A stretch of DNA of 64,000 nt from an uncultured SAR86 cluster bacterium. GTDB taxonomy: Bacteria; Pseudomonadota; Gammaproteobacteria; Magnimaribacterales; AG-339-G14. The position numbers and the translations under genes were made by a program. Location of the stretch: contig CACJUN010000001.1 of NCBI GenBank assembly GCA_902596665.1, positions 323,680 through 387,679 of the forward strand, given 5' to 3'. The notes beneath the pieces are model-generated. The model was not told where the DNA came from, did no database searches, and saw only the letters and a program-made list of their open reading frames with translations. Below are positions 501-29,134 of the stretch, one piece after another (within the stretch, counting starts at the first letter, position 1; each line of letters opens with the position of its first letter).

Positions 501-1861
501 CTAAAGAATCGCTTTTATCAATATCTCCTATTGATGGAAGATATAAAAATAAAATTAAGGAACTCGAAAATTATTTTTCTGAATTTGCTCTCATCAAAAC
601 GAGAGTTGAAGTAGAAATAAGATGGTTACTATTTTTATTAAATACAAAAAGTTTTAAATTTTTACCTTCAACTAATAAAAATCAACATAAAAAAATTGAG
701 AAAATCTATTTAAATTTTAATTTGAAGGAAGCTTCAAAAGTTAAATCTATAGAAAAGATTACAAATCATGATGTAAAAGCCGTAGAAGTTTATATAGTAA
801 AGCAGCTTGAATCAGTGGGATTATCCAAACTGAGTGAATTTGTGCATATTTGTTGTACTTCTGAAGATATCAACAACCTATCTTATGCATTAATGGTTGA
901 AAGATATAGAACTGAATGTTTATTGCCAAATCTAAAGTCTTTTAATAAAGAAATTAATAAGATGGCTGTCAAATGGGCAAATATTTCTATGCTTTCCTTC
1001 ACGCACGGTCAAAAAGCTAGCCCTACTTCCCTAGGAAAAGAATTTAAGAATTTTTATCATCGAATTTCCTTCCATCAAAATAAAATTAATGAATCTAAAC
1101 AATCTGCAAAATTTAATGGAGCTGTGGGTAATTTTAATGCTCATCATGTACTAGATTTTAAAATTGATTGGCCAAAAATTACTAAAAAATTTATTTCTTC
1201 ATTCAATCTTGAATATTCTCTAATTTCATCTCAAATTGAATTTAAAGACAATCTAGTATTTTTATTATCTAACGTAGAAAATTTAAATAATGTATTGCTA
1301 GATTTATCAAAGGACGCTTGGCTTTATATATCTAAAGATTATCTTAAACAAAAAATTTCTTCGACCGAGGTAGGTTCATCAACTATGCCGCACAAAGTCA
1401 ATCCTATTGATTTCGAAAATGCTGAAGGAAATTTATCTTTATCAAATAGCTTAATTCCTGCTGTCAAAAATAAATTACAAATTTCTAGACTACAGAGAGA
1501 CTTATCCGATTCAACAGTCAGTAGAAATATTGGTCTTTGTTTTGCATATTTAGAAATTTCTCTTAAATCATTAAATAAAGGGCTTAAAAAACTTGAACCA
1601 AATAAGAAAAAAATTAAAGAGGAGTTACAGGAAAGTTGGGAAGTTTTAGCAGAAGCAATACAGACTGTCATGAGAAAAAATAAAATTTCTAATAGTTATG
1701 ACATCATAAAAAAATTAACTAGAGGGAAAGAACTAAGTGAAGAAACTTATCGCAACTTAATTGAAAATCTTCCTATTAATGAAGTAGATAAAACTAAACT
1801 TCTTAAGCTAACTCCTATACAATACACCGGCTTAGCTAGCTATCTAGCAAAATTAAAATAA
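497..1861 (+). CDS. purB: adenylosuccinate lyase
   Basis: 454 aa. It has the SPIDGRYKNK N-terminus, the fumarate-lyase signature GSSTMPHKVNP, and a length like E. coli PurB. Confidence 0.9.
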   Translation: MTKESLLSISPIDGRYKNKIKELENYFSEFALIKTRVEVEIRWLLFLLNTKSFKFLPSTNKNQHKKIEKIYLNFNLKEASKVKSIEKITNHDVKAVEVYIVKQLESVGLSKLSEFVHICCTSEDINNLSYALMVERYRTECLLPNLKSFNKEINKMAVKWANISMLSFTHGQKASPTSLGKEFKNFYHRISFHQNKINESKQSAKFNGAVGNFNAHHVLDFKIDWPKITKKFISSFNLEYSLISSQIEFKDNLVFLLSNVENLNNVLLDLSKDAWLYISKDYLKQKISSTEVGSSTMPHKVNPIDFENAEGNLSLSNSLIPAVKNKLQISRLQRDLSDSTVSRNIGLCFAYLEISLKSLNKGLKKLEPNKKKIKEELQESWEVLAEAIQTVMRKNKISNSYDIIKKLTRGKELSEETYRNLIENLPINEVDKTKLLKLTPIQYTGLASYLAKLK

Positions 1862-1886
1862 GTATTCATTGAGAAGAGGACTGTAA

Positions 1887-3491
1887 ATGCTTGATTATAA
1901 AAAGACTGTAGAACATTTTGAGCAATTAATAGCTAAAGGTGGAGATTTATACAAAAATATTTCTGCTGAAAATGCAGCTCGAATGGATTTACAAAATAGA
2001 TTCAAAACAGGCTTGGATATAGCTAAATATACTGCAGACATCATGCACAAAGATATGTCTGAATATGATGGAGATTCATCTGTTTATACTCAATCTTTAG
2101 GTTGTTGGCATGGTTTTACCGCTCAACAAATGATGATGGAGATAAAAAAATCCAGAGAAACTACTAACAAAAGATATGTTTATTTGAGCGGATGGATGGT
2201 CGCTGCTCTGAGATCTGACTTTGGCCCTCTTCCAGATCAAAGCATGCATGAGAAATTAGCTGTTCCAAACTTAATTAAAGAGATATATACATTTTTAAAA
2301 AGAGCCGATGCTGTTGAGTTACAACATCTATTCAATGAATTAGATGAAGTAAGAGAAAATGGTGGAGATGAATCAGAAGTGATATCCAAAATAGATAATT
2401 TTGAGACTCATGTCGTGCCAATAATTGCAGATATCGATGCTGGCTTCGGTAATGAAGAAGCAACCTATTTATTAGCAAAGAAAATGATTCAAGCTGGAGC
2501 GTGTTGCATTCAGATTGAGAATCAGGTTTCTGATGAAAAACAATGTGGGCACCAAGATGGAAAGGTTACAGTCCCTCACGAAGACTTTTTACATAAAATC
2601 AATGCAGTTAGATATTCCTTTTTAGAACTCGGTGTAGAAAACGGGTTGATAGTTGCTAGAACTGATTCTTTGGGAGCAGGACTTACTCAGAAAGTACCAG
2701 TAATGCAAGAACAAGGCGACTTGGCAGATCAATATAATTCTTTTCTTGAAACCGAAGAAATTACTAACCTTGAAGAACTAGATGAAAACGATATAACCAT
2801 CCATCAAAACGGTGTTTTAGTTAAACCTGTTCGTCTACCCAATGGCCTATACAGATTTAAAGAAGACACAGGTTTTGACAGAGTAGTCCTTGATTGTATT
2901 ACAAGCTTACAAAATGGAGCTGATCTTTTATGGATTGAGACAGAAAAACCGAACGTACAGCAAATTGCTGACATGGTTAATGCAATAAGAAAAGTCGAAC
3001 CTAAGGCTAAGTTAGTCTATAACAATTCCCCATCTTTTAATTGGACTTTGTCATTTAGAGAACAGGTTTACAAAGAATGGGTTAATTCGGGTAAAGATGT
3101 TTCGGCATATCCTGATCCTTCTTCGAATCCTAAAGGTTTAATGGATGTTAAATTTGACGATTCTGAACTGGCCTTAGAAGCAGATAATCTCATACAAACT
3201 TTCCAGAAAGATGCATCAAGAGAAGCAGGAATTTTTCATCATTTAATTACTTTGCCCACTTATCACGAAACAGCCTTGGGAACAGCAACATTAACTGAAG
3301 GTTATTTTGGTGATGAAGGAATGCTAGCTTATGTTAAAGGTATTCAAAGACAGGAAATAAGAAGAGATATGTCATCTGTAAAACACCAAGATCTAGCTGG
3401 TTCAACAATTGGTGATACTCACAAAGAATATTTTTCTGGCGATAAAGCACTTAAAGCAGGCGGAAAAGACAACACAATGAATCAGTTCTAA
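1887..3491 (+). CDS. aceA: isocitrate lyase (long, approx. 530-aa Pseudomonas-type)
   Basis: 534 aa with the isocitrate-lyase signature K-x-C-G-H (EKQCGHQDGK) and DAGFG. Confidence 0.9.
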   Translation: MLDYKKTVEHFEQLIAKGGDLYKNISAENAARMDLQNRFKTGLDIAKYTADIMHKDMSEYDGDSSVYTQSLGCWHGFTAQQMMMEIKKSRETTNKRYVYLSGWMVAALRSDFGPLPDQSMHEKLAVPNLIKEIYTFLKRADAVELQHLFNELDEVRENGGDESEVISKIDNFETHVVPIIADIDAGFGNEEATYLLAKKMIQAGACCIQIENQVSDEKQCGHQDGKVTVPHEDFLHKINAVRYSFLELGVENGLIVARTDSLGAGLTQKVPVMQEQGDLADQYNSFLETEEITNLEELDENDITIHQNGVLVKPVRLPNGLYRFKEDTGFDRVVLDCITSLQNGADLLWIETEKPNVQQIADMVNAIRKVEPKAKLVYNNSPSFNWTLSFREQVYKEWVNSGKDVSAYPDPSSNPKGLMDVKFDDSELALEADNLIQTFQKDASREAGIFHHLITLPTYHETALGTATLTEGYFGDEGMLAYVKGIQRQEIRRDMSSVKHQDLAGSTIGDTHKEYFSGDKALKAGGKDNTMNQF

Positions 3492-3665
3492 TTACTTAGG
3501 ACATTTTTTTGGATTGCCGCCACATATAGAGCATTCCAAATCACTATCGAGATTACTCATACCTCCACAAGATCCTTCTAAAGGCTTGTTATTTAGGATT
3601 AATCCCAAACTCAATCCTAAGATTGATAAGATCACAACGATAGATGCAAAGAAAAAAGTAGCCAT
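3492..3665 (-). CDS. nqrM: Na+-NQR maturation protein NqrM (57 aa, not in the ORF track)
   Basis: The minus-strand translation is MATFFFASIVVILSILGLSLGLILNNKPLEGSCGGMSNLDSDLECSICGGNPKKCPK. It has one TM helix plus the GSCGG and C-x2-C Cys cluster typical of NqrM/DUF539. It starts 2 nt after the apbE stop, which is the canonical nqr-apbE-nqrM order. Confidence 0.75.
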   Translation of the reverse strand: MATFFFASIVVILSILGLSLGLILNNKPLEGSCGGMSNLDSDLECSICGGNPKKCPK

Positions 3666-3667
3666 AT

Positions 3668-4636
3668 TTAGTGGATTATATCTTCAAAAGATGGAGTCAT
3701 TCTAATAGAAAATTCACCTTCTGACCTAAAAATAAATAAGGCTGCAATTGAATTATTAACTGCAAAATCAAATCCTTCCTTTAAACCCATAACATTCAAT
3801 GCAGTTGCTAAAGCATCTGCATCACCCGCATGTCGAAATTGTCCAGGCAAGGCTACAGAGACGGATGATAAATTATTTGAAATAGGAAAACCTGTCTTAG
3901 GGTCGATTGTATGTGAATAGCGCTTGTTATCTAAAGTAAAAAAATTTCTGTAATCACCTGAAGTTGCTACTGCCATATACTTTTCGTTGTCTTTTTTCGA
4001 TAAACACTCAATAGGTTTACTGATTTGAGTATCAGGATTTTCTATGCAGATAATCCAAGGAGATTTCTTTTTATTTCCTTTGATAAGTATTTCTCCCCCG
4101 ATATCAATAAAATAATTATTTAGATCTTGATCATCCAATAATCTAGCAATCTCATCAACTGCATAACCTTTAGCGATTGCAGAAAAATCAATTTCTAAAT
4201 GATCATTGGAGCTAGAGTCACATCCATTGGGAATAATATTCTCAATAGCTTCTTCCTCTGGTAGAGACATTCTTTTTACTGGTCCAAAACCCCAAAGATT
4301 TACCAGGCTGCCTGTAAAAATATTGAAGTTTTGATTTACAAACTCACATATTTCAATCGAATGATTTAGTAAATTAGTGAAATCAACATTGGTAGCTTGT
4401 TTCTCTTTTCTATTAAATCTCATTAAATAAGACTCACTTTTATAATTTGAAAAAAGCATATCAATTTCACGAAGTTTTAAATCAATAGATGATTGGATAT
4501 TATTTAAATTTGGAGAATCTGAAATTTTTATATTGTAGTAAGTTCCAAATATATATCCTTGGTATTGATTTTCATTAGGAACGCAACCAGTTAAAAGAAG
4601 TAAGGATGTTAAAAGATATCTAACTACCAAAGTCAT
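3668..4636 (-). CDS. apbE: FAD:protein FMN transferase ApbE (lipoprotein)
   Basis: 322 aa with the lipobox LLTGC. ApbE motifs [10 protein letters not shown] and [22 protein letters not shown] are present. It overlaps the nqrF end. Confidence 0.9.
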
Positions 4637-5849
4637 CGAACATGATGTTCTCAGGTTCTACTCCAAGGCTATCAAGCATTGTAAAACAAGCATCCATCAT
4701 TGGAGGAGGACCGCACATATAATATTCACAATCTTCTGGAGCAGGATGATCTTTGAGATAATTATCAAGTAAAACTTGATGAATGAATCCAGTCATACCG
4801 TTCCATTCATCTTCAGGTAAAGGATCTGATAGAGCTGCATGCCAGGTAAAATTCTCGTATTTTTCTTCCAATTTATTGAAATCATCAATATAAAACATTT
4901 CTTTTAAACTTCTAGCTCCGTACCAAAAAGTAATTTTTCTGGAAGAATCCAATCTCAAAAGCTGATCAAATATATGAGAACGCATAGGTGCCATACCCGC
5001 ACCACCACCAATAAATACCATTTCATTTGCGGTATCTTTAGCCATGAATTCTCCAAATGGACCGAAGATGGTTAAATTATCACCTGGTTTTAAATTAAAT
5101 AAATAAGATGAAGCTTCGCCTGGTGGAAAATTTGTTCCAGGAGGTGGACTTGCAATTCTAATGTTAAATTTCATTATCCCCTTTTCTTCAGGATAATTAG
5201 CCATTGAATATGCTCTTATGACAGGAACACCAACTGTAGCTACATTTTCAAAAACTTTAAATTTTTCCCAATCTCCTTTGTAAATGTCTTTAATATCGAA
5301 AGATTTATAATCTGCTTCATAAGGAGGTATTTCCATTTGAACATAGCCTCCTGCTTCAAAACCAACATTCTCTCCTTCAGGTAATTTCAAAACTAATTCT
5401 TTAATAAAAGTTGCCACGTTATCATTTGAGATAACAGTTGTTTCCCATTTTTTAACGCCAAAAACTTCATCCGGCACTGTAATTTTCATATCAGCCTTTA
5501 CAGGCACCTGACAAGAAAGTCTCCAGCCTTCTCTTTTTTCTTTATTGTTAAAATGGGCTTCTTCAGTAGAAAGTATTGAGCCGCCGCCTTCGTAAACTTG
5601 GCAACGACACTGAGAGCAAGTGCCCCCTCCTCCACATGCCGAGGAAAGAAATAAATTCTCTGAAGCTAAGGTCTGTAATAATTTTCCTCCTGCAGGGACT
5701 TTTATTGCTTTATCCTGATCTCCATTAATTTCGATAGTAACGTCACCAGTAGATACTAATCTTGATCTAGCAAACAAAATTACGAATATCATCAGGTTTA
5801 CTATTAATGCAAAAGTAACGATTCCAAATATAAGATCTAAATTAATCAT
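4620..5849 (-). CDS. nqrF: Na+-translocating NADH:quinone oxidoreductase subunit F
   Basis: 409 aa with an N-terminal TM helix, a 2Fe-2S ferredoxin Cys pattern ([12 protein letters not shown]) and an FAD/NAD(P)-binding C-terminal domain. Confidence 0.95.
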
Positions 5850-6461
5850 TTAAAGTATTATTCCTCCAAATGACATAAAACCAAAGGTCATCAAACCAAC
5901 AGTTATAAAGGTAATACCTAATCCTTCAAGTCCATCTGGAATATCGCTGTATTTTAATTTTTCTCTGATACCTGCTAAAAGAACAATAGCTAGAGCCCAG
6001 CCTACTCCGCCTCCAAGGCCATAAACAACACTCTCACCAAAGTCTAAATTCTTTTCTACCATGAATAGAGATGCACCAAGAATTGCACAATTTACTGTTA
6101 TAAGAGGAAGAAATATTCCTAAGGCAGTATAGAGCTTGGGAACGTATTTATCTAAAAACATCTCAAGTATTTGTACACATGCAGCAATAACCCCTATGTA
6201 ACTGATTAAACCGACAAATTCCAGAGATACATCTGGGAAACCGAGCCAAGTTAAAGCTCCATCTCTAAGTAAAAAGTTATAAATAATATTATTTAAAGGA
6301 ACAGTTATGGCTAGTACAACGATTACAGCAATTCCAAGACCAATTGCAGCTTCAATTTTTTTAGAAATGGCTAAAAATGTACACATACCAAGAAAAACAG
6401 ATAATGCTAGGTTCTCTATGAAAATTGAAGATATAAAAATAGATAGGTAATGCTCAAGCAT
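5850..6461 (-). CDS. nqrE: Na+-NQR subunit E
   Basis: Polytopic Rnf/Nqr E-type membrane protein. I prefer the start at MLEHYLSIF (6461) over the track start (6488), which runs into nqrD. Confidence 0.9.
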
Positions 6462-7128
6462 GATGTGTTTCCACCTCTTTAGGAGCATTTTTACTCATCA
6501 GGAATTCTTTTTCTTCAACTTGTTCGGTCTTCCATGATCTAAGTGCCCATATGAATAATCCAATTATTAGGAATGAACTCGGTGCCAGCAGAAAGAAGTT
6601 ATTACCAACATACCATCCACCATTTTGAGTAGTAATTAAAATATCAATTCCAAGTAGTTGACCAGAACCCAGTAACTCTCTGATAGCTCCAACAACAATT
6701 AGTATAAGACTGTATCCTAGACCATTTCCCAAACCATCTAAAAAACTAACCCCAGGAGTATTTTGCATAGCAAATGCTTCTGCTCTACCCATTACAATAC
6801 AGTTAGTGATAATTAATCCAACAAAAACAGATAATGTTTTGCTTGTTTCATAATCGTAAGCTTTTAGGAATTGATCCACCAAGATAACCAAAGAAGAAAT
6901 AATGGTCATTTGGACAATAATTCTTATATTAGTTGGGATTATGTTTCTTATTAGAGAAATAAAGAAATTTGATAGGCTAACAGTGATAGTCAAAGCAACA
7001 CACATTATAAGTGTTGGATAAAGCTTACTAGTAACCGCTAATGCTGAACAAATGCCTAATATTTGTAAGGCAATTGGATTATCCTTGAAGATAGGTGTCA
7101 ATAAAATTTCTTTGAACTTAGACATCAC
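6454..7128 (-). CDS. nqrD: Na+-NQR subunit D
   Basis: 224 aa polytopic membrane protein. The [17 protein letters not shown] motif is typical of NqrD/RnfE. Confidence 0.9.
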
Positions 7129-23544: not shown

Positions 23545-24108
23545 TCAGTCCAATTTTCCAAGCGAAAATTCTTTATCGTTACTTTTAATAAATAATTCTT
23601 TATCCCTCTCGTAGGATTCGTCTACTAATTGATAAAAAACATTTCTACTGATTAGCCCTTCTAAGTTTTTTCTTACCTTTAAATATGGTGAAGGTTCTTG
23701 TGTATCTTTATCAATTTCAACTCTTAACTTATCTAGAGTATCTAAAAGTACAATATCGCCAACGTTGGTCTTGAACAAAAAAACTTCTTTATCGTTTTTA
23801 ATTTCTTTTTGGTAGGTAACGATAACGAAAGGCTTATCTTCAACTTCAATCCTAATTTTTTCTACTGGGGTAACAAGGTAGTAATTTCCATCCTCATCGA
23901 ATCTCAGCACCGTACTAAATAAACTAACCATTTTTTCGCGGCCTATAGGAGAATCCATAAAATACCATTTTCCATCTCTGGATATTTTCATCTGAACGTT
24001 TTCACATAAAGGAGGATTCCAATCATCGACAGGAGGAAGTGAACCTTCATTTTGAAGCTTCAAGATATCACTAAATAATTGAGCAGATGTTTTTGGGCCA
24101 GATTCCAT
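23545..24108 (-). CDS. DUF1285 family protein
   Basis: 187 aa. ISRDGKWYFMDSPIGREKMVSLFSTVLR..YYLVTPVEKIRIEVEDKPF resembles the DUF1285 consensus as I recall it. Confidence 0.65.
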   Translation of the reverse strand: MESGPKTSAQLFSDILKLQNEGSLPPVDDWNPPLCENVQMKISRDGKWYFMDSPIGREKMVSLFSTVLRFDEDGNYYLVTPVEKIRIEVEDKPFVIVTYQKEIKNDKEVFLFKTNVGDIVLLDTLDKLRVEIDKDTQEPSPYLKVRKNLEGLISRNVFYQLVDESYERDKELFIKSNDKEFSLGKLD

Positions 24109-24698
24109 TACAAAGTTAATAAATAAAAAGAACTAATTATAAAAACGATACCAGTAAATTTGTATATCCATGGAATGAAATTATTAAATTTATATAAAAA
24201 TCCTTTACTTGTGAGCAATAAAGACAAAAATGCAAACCACATAAAAGTGCTAACTGCTATAAACACAGCATAAAGAATTAGGATACTTAAAGGAGTATCG
24301 ATACTCACAATTGCAAAAAATAAGGTAACAGTAAATGTACTTGCCTGAAGATTAAGAAGATTTGTCATAAATCCAAGGGTAAAGTTTTTAGAGCTTGAAC
24401 GTGTTACTGTTTCTGATGGTCGGTCAGTAAAAAAAGAAGAAATTCCTAAATACATTAAATATAAAATAGCTATGGGTTTGAGAACAAGAAATATATTTTC
24501 TTGATATCTCATAATTAATTCCATTCCAAAAATAGAATAAAGACAATGAAAAAATTCACTAGTAGCAATACCTAAGGCAGTAAAAATAGATGCTCTCCTT
24601 GTAGATGATAGAGATTGTCTCAGTACAACAGCAAAATCAGGTCCAGGACTTATAACCGCTACAAGATGAATGGAAGCAATTAAAAGAAATTCAGTCAA
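24108..24698 (-). CDS. LysE family amino-acid exporter
   Basis: 196 aa with about 6 TM helices and the N-terminal ISPGPDF motif. Confidence 0.75.
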   Translation of the reverse strand: MTEFLLIASIHLVAVISPGPDFAVVLRQSLSSTRRASIFTALGIATSEFFHCLYSIFGMELIMRYQENIFLVLKPIAILYLMYLGISSFFTDRPSETVTRSSSKNFTLGFMTNLLNLQASTFTVTLFFAIVSIDTPLSILILYAVFIAVSTFMWFAFLSLLLTSKGFLYKFNNFIPWIYKFTGIVFIISSFYLLTL

Positions 24699-25687
24699 AA
24701 TATTTGGGGTTCTAATTCTAAATTAATGTTGTAATTCTCCAACACAGAGGCCTGGATATGCGAGGCAAGATCAAGAATATCCTCCGATTTCTCAGATTTA
24801 TTTTCTAGCACTAGCGAGTGTTTTTCAGACACTCTTGCATTATTCAATACAAAACCTTTTAGGCTTAATGATTCAATTAAAAAAGCTGCTGATATTTTTA
24901 CTTTATTATCAATGTATGAATAAAATTTAATCTTTGGAAGAATTTGTTTTATTTTTTCCAATTCATCCAATGAAATAATAGGATTTTTAAAAAAGCTGCC
25001 AACATTTGGATGTTCTTTTGGGTCTGATATTTTAGCTTTTCTTATTTTTAGGATATGTTTTCTGATGATAAACGGAGTAATCTCTTCTGCTTTTAAAAAG
25101 TTTAAATCTTCATACTCTAAGTTGGGTTGAAAATCTTTGGTTAATTTGAATTTAACTTTTATGACAATTAGAGAATCTTTATCTTGAAATATGCTTTGTC
25201 TGTATGAAAATTTGCAATCATTATTAGTAAAGCTAACCAAACTATTTGAATCCATATCAAAACAAATGACTTCATCAATAAAATCAGATACTTCGCTCCC
25301 ATAAGCTCCAATATTCTGAATAGGTGCAGCTCCAATGCTTCCAGGTATACCTGATAAATTCTCTAATCCGCAATAACCGTTTTCTAAGGACCAGAGCACA
25401 AAATCATCCCAATTTTTACCCGCTCCAACTGTAATTAAATTATCCTCGATTGATATTTCATTAAATGAAATTTTTATTACAAACTTGTTAAGCAAATTAG
25501 GCAGAACAACGTTGGATCCCTCTCCAAGGATACAAAAATTAATTTTTTTTGTTGAGGTAAAATTTTGAATATTTTTTAAGTCTTCAAGATCAAAGATTTC
25601 TATAAAAAACTTTGCAGTAGAATCAATTTTTAAAAGATTATTTTCTTTTAAGCTAAAGGATTTTTTTATTTTATTTGATAGTTTCAT
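24695..25687 (-). CDS. murB: UDP-N-acetylenolpyruvoylglucosamine reductase
   Basis: 330 aa with an FAD-binding domain (ILGEGSNVV) and GSFFKNP. Confidence 0.85.
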   Translation of the reverse strand: MKLSNKIKKSFSLKENNLLKIDSTAKFFIEIFDLEDLKNIQNFTSTKKINFCILGEGSNVVLPNLLNKFVIKISFNEISIEDNLITVGAGKNWDDFVLWSLENGYCGLENLSGIPGSIGAAPIQNIGAYGSEVSDFIDEVICFDMDSNSLVSFTNNDCKFSYRQSIFQDKDSLIVIKVKFKLTKDFQPNLEYEDLNFLKAEEITPFIIRKHILKIRKAKISDPKEHPNVGSFFKNPIISLDELEKIKQILPKIKFYSYIDNKVKISAAFLIESLSLKGFVLNNARVSEKHSLVLENKSEKSEDILDLASHIQASVLENYNINLELEPQIF

Positions 25688-26366
25688 TAGCTCTAATCAA
25701 ATCTTCTTCTGTATCTATTCCAAAGCTGCTCGTAGAAGATGATTTAAATGCTTTAATCTGATGACCGTTATCTAGAGCTCTCAATTGTTCTAAACTTTCT
25801 CGAATCTCGTTTTCAGATTGCTCATAATTAACGAATTTTTTTAAAAATTCACATCTATAAGCATATATTCCAAGATGATGATAAATAGAATCTGATGATT
25901 TAAAGTTTCTTGAAAATGAGGTTGCAATATTGTCAGTCACACTAATTTTCACTGTATTAGTATCATCTATATCTTCTTTTTTAAGTTCTTTGTATAAGGT
26001 TGCCATTTCGAAATCATCGTTGTAATTGTGTATCAAAGTATTGATATCATCATGAGATATAAATGGTTCATCTCCTTGAACGTTAATTATTAAATCTTCT
26101 TCATGACATTTTATTTTTGTTATTGCTTCGTTGATTCTATCTGTGCCTGTTTTATGATCTACTGAAGTCATAATCACTTGTCCGTTAAATTCTAGAACTT
26201 GATCTCTTATCTTCTCAGAATCTGTTGCAATAAATATAAAATCAGCATCAGATTTTCTACAAGATTCATACACCCATTGAATCATAGGCTTGCTACCAAT
26301 TTTCTTTAACGGTTTACCGGGTAATCTAGATGAGGACCATCTAGCAGGGATCACTACATAATTCAT
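25671..26366 (-). CDS. kdsB: 3-deoxy-manno-octulosonate cytidylyltransferase
   Basis: 231 aa with VIPARWSSSRLPGKPL and NVQGDEP. Confidence 0.9.
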   Translation of the reverse strand: MNYVVIPARWSSSRLPGKPLKKIGSKPMIQWVYESCRKSDADFIFIATDSEKIRDQVLEFNGQVIMTSVDHKTGTDRINEAITKIKCHEEDLIINVQGDEPFISHDDINTLIHNYNDDFEMATLYKELKKEDIDDTNTVKISVTDNIATSFSRNFKSSDSIYHHLGIYAYRCEFLKKFVNYEQSENEIRESLEQLRALDNGHQIKAFKSSSTSSFGIDTEEDLIRANETIK

Positions 26367-29134
26367 TTAGATTTAATTTCGGCTAAGAAATCTTGTTCAA
26401 AGTTATCTGAAACTTCAGCTTCTATCTTTAAATACCAATAATTCGTATGGTCTAAAAATGAGCATTTTATTGCATCTTTTTCTGTCATTACAGTAGGTTG
26501 ATTATCCATAATTTCAAAATCTACGCTGTGAAAGTCATGATGATCAGGAAAAGCGTATTCAGATAAGTCAAAACCCAGTTGTTTTAATAAATTAAAAAAA
26601 TTAGATGGGTTTCCAATTCCTGCGACTGCATTTACTTCTTTTTTTAAGGGCCAGTCGAAAATATCATATTCCTTCTGGCTTTTCATATGAACCCATTTGA
26701 AAGGACGATATTTCATTTCATATTTTGCAACTGAAGGCCATTTTCTATTTGAGCTGATTGTAAAATCGACTGTTTTAATTCTAGATTTTGGTTCTCTAAG
26801 TGGTCCTGCTGGAAGCAGAAGCTCGTTTCCAAACTTCCTATTTCCGTCAATCATTAATATTTCTATATCTCTTCCAAGAGAAAAGTGCTGCAAACCATCA
26901 TCGCTTAAAATGACATTGCTATCTGTATTTTCCATAAGATGTTTAGCAGCTTGTATCCTATTGGGTCCGATGACCACTGGACACTGAGAATTCTTAAACA
27001 TAATAGCCGGTTCATCTCCAGATTCGTCAATTGGGGTTTCTGAGTTTAGTAGCAATGGATAGGTTTTTGATTTACTCAGGTAACCTCTTGAAATTATTCC
27101 TGGTTTAAGACCTTGTTTTTTAAGTAATTTAGCAAGGTAAATAATTATAGGAGTTTTTCCTGTGCCGCCAACTGTCAGGTTACCAACAACTATCGTAAGA
27201 AGATTAGGTTTCCATGAATTAGAAATTTGATATCTTTTTTGTCTATTAAAGAGAAATTGGTATATCCATGAAAATGGAATAAGAAGTTTAGGCCAGAGAC
27301 TATTTTCGTACCATGCTTGTTCTAACTTTGAAACATAGGATTTTGATGCATCAATATTTACGAGGAGGTTAGAATTTGATTCAGCATCAATATTTACTGC
27401 ACCATCATCAAAATCAAATTGATTTCTATAGAGTTGAAAATAAGGACCTTCAGATAATATTAATTGGCTATGCTTACCTCTTTCAACTATTTCTCCACTT
27501 TGAAGAACTAATATTTCATCTGCTTGCTCTACCGTTGAAAGTCTATGAGCAATAGTAATTGTAGTTTTACCTTCTTTTAAGTTAGCAATCGCATCTGTTA
27601 TCAATCTTTCAGATTCAGAATCTAAAGCAGAGGTGGCTTCATCCAATATTAAAAAAGGTGAATTTTTTAAGATGGCTCTTGCAATGGCGATTCTCTGTTT
27701 CTGCCCTCCGGATAATAATGTTCCATTGTCGCCAATAACGGTTTTATAACCGTCAGGAAAAGATTCTATGAATTGATGAGCATTCGCTTTTTTTGCAGCT
27801 TCATAGACATCTTCTTCACTGGTATCGATATCTCCATAAAAAATATTATTAAAAATTGTGTCATTGAATAGAGTTATCTCTTGTCCTACATAGGAAATTT
27901 GATCTCTCAATGATTCCAGAGAAAGTTCTTCAATCCTTGTTCCATCTATAGAAATTCCGCCCTCTGTGGCATCATAAAATCTAGGGATCAAATTAATGAT
28001 GCTGCTTTTTCCTGCACCTGAGCTTCCAACAATAGCTAAATTAGAACCTTTTTGTAACTCAAAATTTATATTCTTGAGGGAATATTCTTCTGAACTTGGA
28101 TATTTAAGAGAGACATTATCAAATTTTATTTTTCCTTCAGAATTCTTAATAATTTTTGAGCCATCATCTTTTTCTGGAGTTTCATCAATTTGCTTAAAAA
28201 TATCTTCTGCTGCTGCAATACCTTTCTGGAACATAACATTAGTAGAAGATAATTGTCTGATAGGTTTTGCTAGCATTCCTGCACTACCAAAAAAAGCTAT
28301 AAATGTTCCTGATGACATTGATGTAATTACAGAGGGATCTAAGGCAAACCAAGTGATTAGAGCTAATGCCAGAGATATTATTAATTGAATGAGCGGAGAA
28401 GCAATTGAGTTTGTTGATTCTAATTTCAAATTTTGAATTCTATTAGCATCGCTTGCTTCATTAAATTTATCAATTTCAAGATTTTCATTACCGAAAATTT
28501 TTAATTCTTTATGAGCGTTTATAGATTCTGAACTAACATGAGTAACATCACCCATAGCAGATTGGATTTTTTTACTAAGACGTCTTAATCTTTTCCCAGC
28601 AATAGAAACAATGAAGCCAATCAAGGGTGCTGCAATAATTAATACCAGGGTTAATTTCCAATTTAAGTAAATTAAGTAACCTAATAGTCCTATTACTATC
28701 AACCCTTCTCTTATAGTAATTTTGACTGCATCAGTAACTGCACTACTTACCTGCATAACATTAAAAGTAATTCTGGATAATAAATGTCCACTGGAGGATT
28801 TATCATAAAAACTCACTGGCATTGAAATCAATGATTTGAATAAATCTACTCTCAAATTGTGAATTAATTTATTCGAAATAAAGGCCATAAAAAAATTTGA
28901 AAGATAAAAACCGATTCCTCTTATTAGGGCTATTGCTATAAGCGCAAGAGGTAAGATTGTTTGAACTGTTTGATTTGGATTTTCTATAAAATCAACTATT
29001 CTTCTTAACCATTCCGCTGCTCCTACTTGAGCCGCAGCAAATAATACAAATCCAAAAAAACTGATCAAGAAATAAGGAATGCTCGAAGAAACATAGCCAA
29101 AAAGACGTACAAGATATGAAGTATTGCTTTTCAT
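26363..29134 (-). CDS. msbA-lpxK: fusion protein: lipid A flippase MsbA (aa 1-~573) + tetraacyldisaccharide 4'-kinase LpxK (aa ~603-923)
   Basis: One uninterrupted 923-aa ORF. The N-terminal part has a 6-TM ABC exporter plus an NBD (GSSGAGKSS, LSGGQKQR, ILDEATSALD). After a roughly 30-aa linker it continues as LEQAWYENSLWPKLLIPFSWIY..VVGNLTVGGTGKTP..ISRGY, which aligns with the very N-terminus of E. coli LpxK. Confidence 0.85.
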   Translation of the reverse strand: MKSNTSYLVRLFGYVSSSIPYFLISFFGFVLFAAAQVGAAEWLRRIVDFIENPNQTVQTILPLALIAIALIRGIGFYLSNFFMAFISNKLIHNLRVDLFKSLISMPVSFYDKSSSGHLLSRITFNVMQVSSAVTDAVKITIREGLIVIGLLGYLIYLNWKLTLVLIIAAPLIGFIVSIAGKRLRRLSKKIQSAMGDVTHVSSESINAHKELKIFGNENLEIDKFNEASDANRIQNLKLESTNSIASPLIQLIISLALALITWFALDPSVITSMSSGTFIAFFGSAGMLAKPIRQLSSTNVMFQKGIAAAEDIFKQIDETPEKDDGSKIIKNSEGKIKFDNVSLKYPSSEEYSLKNINFELQKGSNLAIVGSSGAGKSSIINLIPRFYDATEGGISIDGTRIEELSLESLRDQISYVGQEITLFNDTIFNNIFYGDIDTSEEDVYEAAKKANAHQFIESFPDGYKTVIGDNGTLLSGGQKQRIAIARAILKNSPFLILDEATSALDSESERLITDAIANLKEGKTTITIAHRLSTVEQADEILVLQSGEIVERGKHSQLILSEGPYFQLYRNQFDFDDGAVNIDAESNSNLLVNIDASKSYVSKLEQAWYENSLWPKLLIPFSWIYQFLFNRQKRYQISNSWKPNLLTIVVGNLTVGGTGKTPIIIYLAKLLKKQGLKPGIISRGYLSKSKTYPLLLNSETPIDESGDEPAIMFKNSQCPVVIGPNRIQAAKHLMENTDSNVILSDDGLQHFSLGRDIEILMIDGNRKFGNELLLPAGPLREPKSRIKTVDFTISSNRKWPSVAKYEMKYRPFKWVHMKSQKEYDIFDWPLKKEVNAVAGIGNPSNFFNLLKQLGFDLSEYAFPDHHDFHSVDFEIMDNQPTVMTEKDAIKCSFLDHTNYWYLKIEAEVSDNFEQDFLAEIKSK

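Follow-up and report, generated by a model that had tools for sequence, protein, structure and literature searches.

An MsbA-LpxK gene fusion in SAR86 and other, mostly uncultured, Gammaproteobacteria

Both the lipid A exporter MsbA and the lipid A 4'-kinase LpxK are essential and much-studied targets for antibiotics, and work on them has invariably dealt with two separate proteins. In Escherichia coli they are separate products of 582 and 328 aa, respectively, encoded in one operon, ycaI-msbA-lpxK-ycaQ, where msbA and lpxK overlap by 4 nt and are co-transcribed (PMC10328246). Here we examine a stretch of 64,000 nt (~33% GC; hereafter the window) from an uncultured SAR86 cluster bacterium (GenBank assembly GCA_902596665.1, contig CACJUN010000001.1, positions 323,680 to 387,679 of the forward strand), in which MsbA and LpxK are encoded by one uninterrupted open reading frame (ORF). 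The order msbA, lpxK and then kdsB is shared by E. coli and the window, but the SAR86 locus has no stop/start between the first two genes and adds 30 bridging residues. It also lacks ycaI, ycaQ and ycaR, and kdsB stands directly next to the fused gene, with a 4-nt overlap.

Each half of the SAR86 protein has well-described structural counterparts. The MsbA part matches known MsbA structures collinearly over its full length (3B5W-3B60 and 5TV4, from E. coli, Salmonella and Vibrio, and also 9BD6 and 7MET; E 1e-139 to 1e-162). The closest solved structures for the LpxK part are those of Aquifex aeolicus LpxK, 4EHW and 4EHX, and the crystal structures of this enzyme (4ITL and 4LKV included) have the same two-domain P-loop kinase, amphipathic helix and residues. 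Unlike in A. aeolicus LpxK, the N-terminus of this helix is not free in the fusion, but tied to the cytoplasmic nucleotide-binding domain of MsbA. Structure searches with each half recovered no PDB chain containing both the MsbA and the LpxK parts.

Another fusion of lipid A/lipopolysaccharide (LPS) pathway genes is the bifunctional LpxC/FabZ of Bacteroidota, whose enzymes act at a branch point on the same acyl-acyl carrier protein pool, whereas LpxK and MsbA lie several pathway steps apart. A further protein, P0182 (976 aa), carries an N-terminal Wzy_C domain (O-antigen ligase/WaaL-like, aa 175-328) followed by a full MsbA-like ATP-binding cassette (ABC) exporter (aa 423-899). What the MsbA-LpxK protein has in common with both is the merging, into a single polypeptide, of envelope genes that are neighbours or linked in function.

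A full-text literature search found no description of an MsbA-LpxK fusion, the matches being to the E. coli operon, Francisella valAB and unrelated fusions, and a 2024 SAR86 isolate paper made no mention of msbA, lpxK or fusions. This agrees with the original prediction, made from the window sequence, which knew of no characterisation of such a protein. Database names are single-function, leaving half of each fusion unlabelled: NCBI uses 'lipid A export permease/ATP-binding protein MsbA' or 'lipid ABC transporter permease', JGI uses 'subfamily B ABC protein MsbA', and the UniRef entry A0A520S093 is called 'Tetraacyldisaccharide 4'-kinase'. As far as we could check, therefore, the fusion is uncharacterised and mislabelled: both proteins are textbook ones, but their covalent arrangement is undescribed. 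To call it undiscovered would be wrong, because its architecture is visible in sequence databases.

A single reading frame for MsbA and LpxK

The 923-aa product joins a complete MsbA to a complete LpxK through a short linker, and we read the locus, with good though not full confidence, as a genuine, vertically inherited gene fusion encoding one bifunctional inner-membrane protein. The original prediction had placed both proteins in one uninterrupted ORF, which is borne out by the ORF itself, by Pfam and NCBIfam matches and by alignments with the E. coli proteins; the motifs that it quoted, ..SEGPYFQLYRNQF, LWPKLLIPFSWIY and GNLTVGGTGKTP, are found in the fusion protein. The features of the locus, in window coordinates, are as follows.

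26363..29134, minus strand: msbA::lpxK fusion ORF, 923 aa plus stop codon, ATG start, uninterrupted
27416..29134, minus strand: MsbA half (aa 1-573), six-helix ABC exporter membrane domain plus nucleotide-binding domain
28277..29068, minus strand: ABC_membrane domain (aa 23-286; Pfam)
27629..28078, minus strand: ABC_tran nucleotide-binding domain (aa 353-502; Pfam)
28004-28027, minus strand: Walker A motif GSSGAGKS (aa 370-377), within ABC_tran
27326..27415, minus strand: linker (aa 574-603), limits from the E. coli MsbA and LpxK alignments
26366..27325, minus strand: LpxK half (aa 604-923), PF02606/TIGR00682
27221..27301, minus strand: LpxK N-terminal membrane-association helix (aa 612-638; SLWPKLLIPFSWIYQFLFNRQKRYQIS), followed by a basic patch
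27152..27184, minus strand: LpxK P-loop GNLTVGGTGKT (aa 651-661), including catalytic K660 and T661, from the alignment to A. aeolicus
25671..26366, minus strand: kdsB (CMP-3-deoxy-D-manno-octulosonate (Kdo) synthetase), its start overlapping the fusion stop codon by 4 nt (ATGA)

The MsbA half matched the NCBIfam equivalog model for MsbA, TIGR02203, over aa 9-574 (669.3 bits against a cutoff of 602; positions 3-571 of a 572-position profile), and its residues 22-573 are 43% identical to residues 27-580, of 582, of MsbA from E. coli K-12. The narrower enterobacterial MsbA model, NF008381, fell short of its cutoff (593 against 867), which is unsurprising in a distant gammaproteobacterium. Besides K376 in the Walker A motif, this half contains Q418 (Q-loop), the LSGGQ signature at aa 474-478, the Walker B residues D498/E499 and, just past ABC_tran, H530 (H-loop). 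In alignments of 17, 33 and 14 fusions (A2, A3 and A4, respectively), G370, G373, G375, K376, Q418, the signature motif, D498/E499 and H530 all occupied invariant columns. Residues R72, R142, K290 and R293 of the fusion align with the lipid A-binding R78, R148, R296 and K299 of E. coli MsbA, and R72 is invariant across the three alignments. In cryo-electron microscopy and crystal work on the E. coli protein, R78, R148 and K299 form the ring that binds the glucosamine phosphates of lipid A; by this alignment, the putative lipid A-binding basic residues are kept in the MsbA half (R72, R142, R293).

The LpxK half is equally well defined, matching PF02606 over aa 616-920 (316.9 bits against a cutoff of 27; E = 1.9e-94; positions 3-327 of a 328-position profile) and the lpxK equivalog TIGR00682 of NCBIfam over aa 617-911 (255.3 bits against a cutoff of 91.95). 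These matches above cutoff, full-length for TIGR02203 and PF02606/TIGR00682, uphold the earlier claim that both halves are complete. Identity to E. coli LpxK was 37% (residues 2-321 against aa 604-920 of the fusion). The residues K660, T661, R683, D707, E708, R726, D745, D746, H750 and H865 are all present, matching in the alignment K51, T52, R72, D99, E100, R119, D138, D139, H143 and H261 of the A. aeolicus enzyme, in which mutation of K51, T52, D99, E100, R119, D138, D139 or H261 cuts kcat by 10^3 to 10^4 (review PMC6286764). They are invariant in the alignment of the SAR86 clade, and most are invariant in distant fusions: columns G651, N652, G656, G657, G659, K660, T661, E708, R726, D745/D746 and H865 did not vary in A2, A3 or A4, and D707 was nearly invariant. 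By these alignments, both halves retain all known catalytic residues.

The N-terminal helix of the LpxK half aligns with the N-terminal amphipathic helix of A. aeolicus LpxK, which is likewise accompanied by a basic patch and is needed for activity (review PMC6286764). In the AlphaFold2 (AF2) model, aa 614-638 form a helix, with the basic patch NRQKRYQ after it. The sequence of the helix region, SLWPKLLIPFSWIYQFLF, has many aromatic residues, and its highest 18-residue Kyte-Doolittle mean, 0.96, is too low for a transmembrane helix at aa 612-638.

Two ORFs of 96 and 130 aa lie antisense within the fusion gene (26697-26987 and 27996-28388, plus strand) and are most likely chance ORFs.

Independent genomes, selection and spread

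An assembly artefact at the junction had been foreseen in the original prediction, which proposed mapping reads across it; we answered the question with independent assemblies instead. A genome scan gave a 100% identical match to the SAR86 single-cell genome AG-908-F10. Eleven further independent SAR86 single-cell assemblies matched residues 1-923 at 94-100% identity, and re-translation yielded an intact 923-codon ORF in all 12 SAR86 genomes, the window's own included. The linkers of these genomes varied by amino-acid substitution only, with zero indels and zero stop codons. Over 66 genome pairs, the ratio of nonsynonymous to synonymous differences per site (pN/pS; Nei-Gojobori) was 0.03 for MsbA, 0.34 for the linker and 0.06 for LpxK, with a pS of ~0.26 in all three regions alike. 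The value for the linker indicates that it evolves as relaxed coding sequence, not as intergenic spacer, and both halves are under strong purifying selection.

For the loss, in assembly or sequencing, of a stop/start junction between separate msbA and lpxK genes speaks a single split copy: a 99%-identical relative on a 1.14-Mb contig (L001) has separate gene calls of 547 and 230 aa. Relative to the window, however, L001 has two homopolymer indels of one base each, one in the membrane domain (CCC to CC) and one inside the LpxK helix (TTT to TTTT). Neither is in the linker, whose DNA is intact and in frame, and the neighbouring lolC is broken too. We therefore rejected the 547-aa calls (P0005 and P0009) as an unfused allele, attributing them to these two indels in a pilon-polished long-read contig. 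The 11 other single-cell assemblies carry the intact ORF, the ~287 distinct fusions described below stem from many assemblers and environments, and the linker combines a pN/pS of 0.34 with zero indels or stops at a pS of ~0.26. Together, these data leave an artefact with a negligible probability. In L001 itself (ena:ERZ28548080 kelso_4 contig_6071_pilon, locus 1808-6527), indels of a single base in homopolymers interrupt each of lolC, msbA and lpxK; its P0005 and P0009 calls mimic the unfused state and would mislead a presence/absence survey.

The original prediction also proposed a search for MsbA-length exporters with a C-terminal LpxK domain, and hundreds were found. The first search for homologs yielded more than 115 clusters at the 90% identity level; these proteins, of 919-950 aa, share the three-domain architecture and are 53-58% identical. 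An exhaustive library at 50% identity added ~16 full-length fusion clusters of 912-1146 aa, down to 32% identity and all with ABC_membrane, ABC_tran and LpxK, and a profile built from distant fusions added ~78 more, of 938-1003 aa. In total, public data contain ~287 distinct fusion proteins, from loci of 32% to 73% GC. Carriers are named at source as SAR86, OM182, Candidatus Azotimanducaceae, 'Pseudomonadales bacterium' or unclassified Gammaproteobacteria or Pseudomonadota, and cluster labels are coarse (Gammaproteobacteria, Pseudomonadota, Pseudomonadales, Ca. Azotimanducaceae, OM182). The fusion is thus not special to the window genome, but widespread among mostly uncultured Gammaproteobacteria.

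We considered genome streamlining as the sole cause of the fusion and rejected it, since contigs of 3-7 Mb and loci of 58-73% GC also carry fusions. Several of the ~78 clusters are on contigs of 3-5.9 Mb, with cluster members on contigs of up to 7.2 Mb; these large contigs and high-GC loci indicate that the fusion is not tied to streamlining.

The most divergent fusions were P0152, P0158, P0173, P0190 and P0218, and a profile search with the divergent set returned mostly ABC proteins with two nucleotide-binding domains, the only fusion among the hits being P0218 itself. P0218 (L030:7001-10441; 1146 aa, 70% GC, contig label '3x') is the most divergent of all and has ~185 extra C-terminal residues past LpxK, without a Pfam match. 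This extension could be an error, because the contig is a low-coverage long-read one. The locus is arranged as aldh-lolCD-comEC-exbBD-fusion-trm112-kdsB.

Sequence comparisons also bear on whether one half might be enzymatically retired, for instance with LpxK reduced to a membrane- or lipid-sensing appendage of MsbA and another gene supplying the real kinase. As the window spans just 64 kb of the genome, a second lpxK or msbA could lie outside it. Conversely, fusions with as little as ~32% identity have unchanged catalytic residues in both halves, the pN/pS values of MsbA and LpxK are 0.03 and 0.06, and both halves score above their equivalog cutoffs. Moreover, no msbA or lpxK paralogue occurs within the 64-kb window, and nearly all of the 120 best matches of the first search were fusions, none being a free LpxK. 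Retirement of either half is, in our judgement, very improbable.

The linker and the ancestry of the junction

The linker, aa 574-603 (DFDDGAVNIDAESNSNLLVNIDASKSYVSK; nt 27326-27415), has no counterpart in E. coli MsbA or LpxK. The match to E. coli MsbA ends at 573 and that to LpxK starts at 604, indicating that these residues are a true insertion. Its description in the original prediction, as ~30 aa rich in Asn, Asp and Ser, was accurate (D, N or S at 14 of 30 positions). The linker showed the lowest conservation of the alignment (0.46, compared with 0.63-0.94 for the rest of the domains) and many indels, and there were 64 distinct junction segments among 119 aligned SAR86-type sequences, every one in frame. 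Over the ~287 fusions, linker length was ~21-52 aa (median 29), with none below ~21 aa; these linkers are rich in E, D, P, A, S and T, contain no Cys and cannot be aligned across clades. With an alignment of 33 sequences, AF2 assigned aa 572-599 a predicted local distance difference test score (pLDDT) below 50 and no secondary structure, whereas pLDDT was mostly 75-93 in the LpxK half. The predicted template modelling score (pTM) of the whole model was 0.46, which gives no confident arrangement between the halves. The linker is, then, a fast-evolving, disordered, acidic or Pro/Ala/Ser-rich spacer.

Such a linker would be open to proteases, which raises the alternative that one ORF yields two proteins, with LpxK freed by linker proteolysis or by internal initiation and the fusion serving only as transcriptional/translational packaging. 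Scanning aa 540-720 in the window, we found no in-frame ATG, GTG or TTG between aa 540 and L694, a span that begins at the end of the nucleotide-binding domain of MsbA and ends past the P-loop of LpxK. The SAR86 relatives likewise have none of these codons at aa 540-693. ATT and ATA codons occur in the linker, with no Shine-Dalgarno-like sequence upstream of them in the window. From the sequence, then, no conventional internal start appears able to give a complete LpxK, the rare ATT and ATA starts being a formal possibility.

Other lineages offer more to this alternative. A Met occurs in the linker in 36 of 289 anchored sequences (12%; two of the 289 were later judged spurious), and in one metagenome-assembled genome (MAG) of the OM182 family a separately annotated LpxK of 338 aa starts at the linker Met. 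This protein, P0426 (MFL2529474.1, Ca. Azotimanducaceae MAG), is 100% identical to residues 623-960 of P0316, an OM182 fusion of 960 aa, and may be a real fission, an internal-start annotation after an upstream error or a fragmentary call. Nevertheless, the linker Met is absent from 88% of fusions, indicating that internal initiation is not the general rule, and the linkers of different clades cannot be aligned, which leaves no conserved cleavage motif. Some lineages could conceivably use internal initiation, which is neither a general feature nor applicable to the window gene; overall, we hold the production of two separate proteins to be improbable.

The surroundings of the fusion indicate how it arose. 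In SAR86, the gene order is aldh-lolC-lolD-[fusion]-kdsB-murB, which is a pared-down form of the cluster of distant carriers, exbB-exbD-[msbA::lpxK]-(trm112/ycaR)-kdsB-...-murB-rne, some of which have lolCDE and comEC/ycaI ahead. Unfused relatives show identical synteny with separate msbA and lpxK, which in related Gammaproteobacteria are adjacent and co-oriented within a lolCDE-(comEC)-exbBD-msbA-lpxK-(ycaR)-kdsB-murB cluster. In Porticoccus sp. GCA_041603575.1 (L029:5843-5900) the two genes are in the same frame, split by one TAG plus 15 nt (...QRQFTDETGQPV*YSGCAMSISSALQQAWY...), and a single substitution would yield a fusion with a linker of ~23 aa. Another unfused relative is one indel short of a fusion with a ~28-aa linker. 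Adjacency, the 4-nt overlap in E. coli and the lone in-frame TAG in Porticoccus thus show that one point mutation or indel is enough to fuse the genes. The linker probably consists of the former MsbA tail, intergenic bases and the LpxK head.

To estimate how often this has happened, we counted fused/unfused transitions by Fitch parsimony on a neighbour-joining tree of the MsbA halves of 80 fusions and 44 standalone proteins, filtered at 85% identity. There were 8 transitions (7-10 in 30 bootstrap replicates), compared with ~37 when the states were shuffled; the count is rough, given the neighbour-joining method, a biased sample and the chance that some standalone gene calls are errors. The fused state is thus inherited within clades and yet has changed repeatedly, ~7-10 times on this rough tree. 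Repeated gain and loss fit a nearly neutral or mildly useful arrangement, and suggest an easily gained device for co-expression or co-localisation rather than substrate channelling.

Downstream of the fusion, the 4-nt overlap claimed in the original prediction was confirmed as ATGA, suggesting that the fusion and kdsB are probably translationally coupled. The whole string (23545-26366, minus strand) is tightly packed, the further overlaps being 17 nt between kdsB and murB, 4 nt between murB and a LysE-family gene, and 1 nt between the latter and a DUF1285 gene. Such packing is consistent with a streamlined genome and with translational coupling of all these genes.

Possible operation and meaning of the tether

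As a single protein, the fusion would dimerise through its MsbA part, as any MsbA, and carry two LpxK domains per transporter on flexible leashes. In the MsbA homodimer, the nucleotide-binding domains would hang well below the membrane. A fully extended linker of 21-30 residues would span roughly 70-100 Å, by our estimate about the distance from the distal nucleotide-binding domain to the membrane surface, and such reach would let the amphipathic helix of LpxK lie in the cytoplasmic leaflet beside the transporter. The absence of linkers below ~21 aa fits this constraint. LpxK would convert tetraacyldisaccharide-1-phosphate into lipid IVA and MsbA would flip finished Kdo-lipid A or core-lipid A, each activity presumably running as in the separate proteins, with the two independently mobile LpxK domains of a dimer working on the same patch of leaflet. 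The benefit probably lies in co-expressing the two essential lipid A proteins at a fixed 1:1 ratio, in their co-localisation and in membrane recruitment of LpxK.

The fusion also constrains the topology of LpxK. The original prediction argued that the halves are compatible because both face the cytoplasm, and the argument holds. The helix has its N-terminal end tied to a cytoplasmic domain, and its C-terminal end leads into a cytoplasmic kinase; a bilayer-spanning course is thus impossible, and the helix must rest within the cytoplasmic leaflet. By this reasoning, the fusion would provide natural topological support for a monotopic model of LpxK.

The tether might also couple the two activities, letting the MsbA cycle and LpxK co-regulate one another or concentrating new lipid IVA at the exporter, so that synthesis is matched to export. 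Persistence of the fusion across lineages of widely differing GC content and genome size is consistent with this, as is a linker that never falls below ~21 aa, as if LpxK must reach the membrane beside MsbA. However, kdsB lies immediately downstream, indicating that Kdo is made, and at least WaaA, which transfers Kdo, acts between the LpxK product and the MsbA substrate, making direct substrate channelling unlikely. AF2 predicted no interface between the halves, and the frequent gain and loss of the fusion, together with close unfused relatives of the same synteny, argue against obligate mechanistic coupling. We regard functional coupling of this kind as unlikely, if less so than the release of two separate proteins. 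An equally speculative extension treats the fusion as a 'Rosetta stone' that would point to a partnership of MsbA and LpxK, both physical and regulatory, throughout Gram-negative bacteria. On this view, LpxK would act at the lateral face of the flippase, the MsbA cycle would gate its activity (proposed to be the second point of control in the Raetz pathway), or the reverse, matching synthesis to export capacity, and the E. coli pair would form the same complex non-covalently; this idea, too, we consider a long shot.

Several points weigh against reading the locus as a genuine fusion that acts as one bifunctional protein. Intact accumulation of the 923-aa product is predicted from the gene sequence, 12% of linkers hold a Met, and one OM182-family MAG has its separate 338-aa LpxK call. 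The AF2 model, at its pTM of 0.46, does not place the halves confidently, and the leash geometry is an estimate only. The ~7-10 changes of state suggest little selective difference between fused and unfused forms. Finally, WaaA and probably the late acyltransferases act between LpxK and MsbA, leaving a tether without obvious kinetic logic.

A genuine, inherited fusion nevertheless remains our preferred reading, in essential agreement with the original prediction, and its consequences are chiefly of use to LPS biochemists and for annotation; by itself, it overturns nothing. Under single-function labels, a pathway reconstruction for SAR86, OM182 or a relative of theirs can wrongly report that lpxK or msbA is absent. 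For evolution, the locus is a clean example of adjacent, translationally coupled genes that flip easily between the fused and unfused states. For structural work, it is a ready-made construct for the study of LpxK at a real membrane. More broadly, a covalent MsbA-LpxK is abundant in some of the commonest bacteria of the ocean, and raises the testable idea that the enzymes of lipid A synthesis cluster at the flippase.

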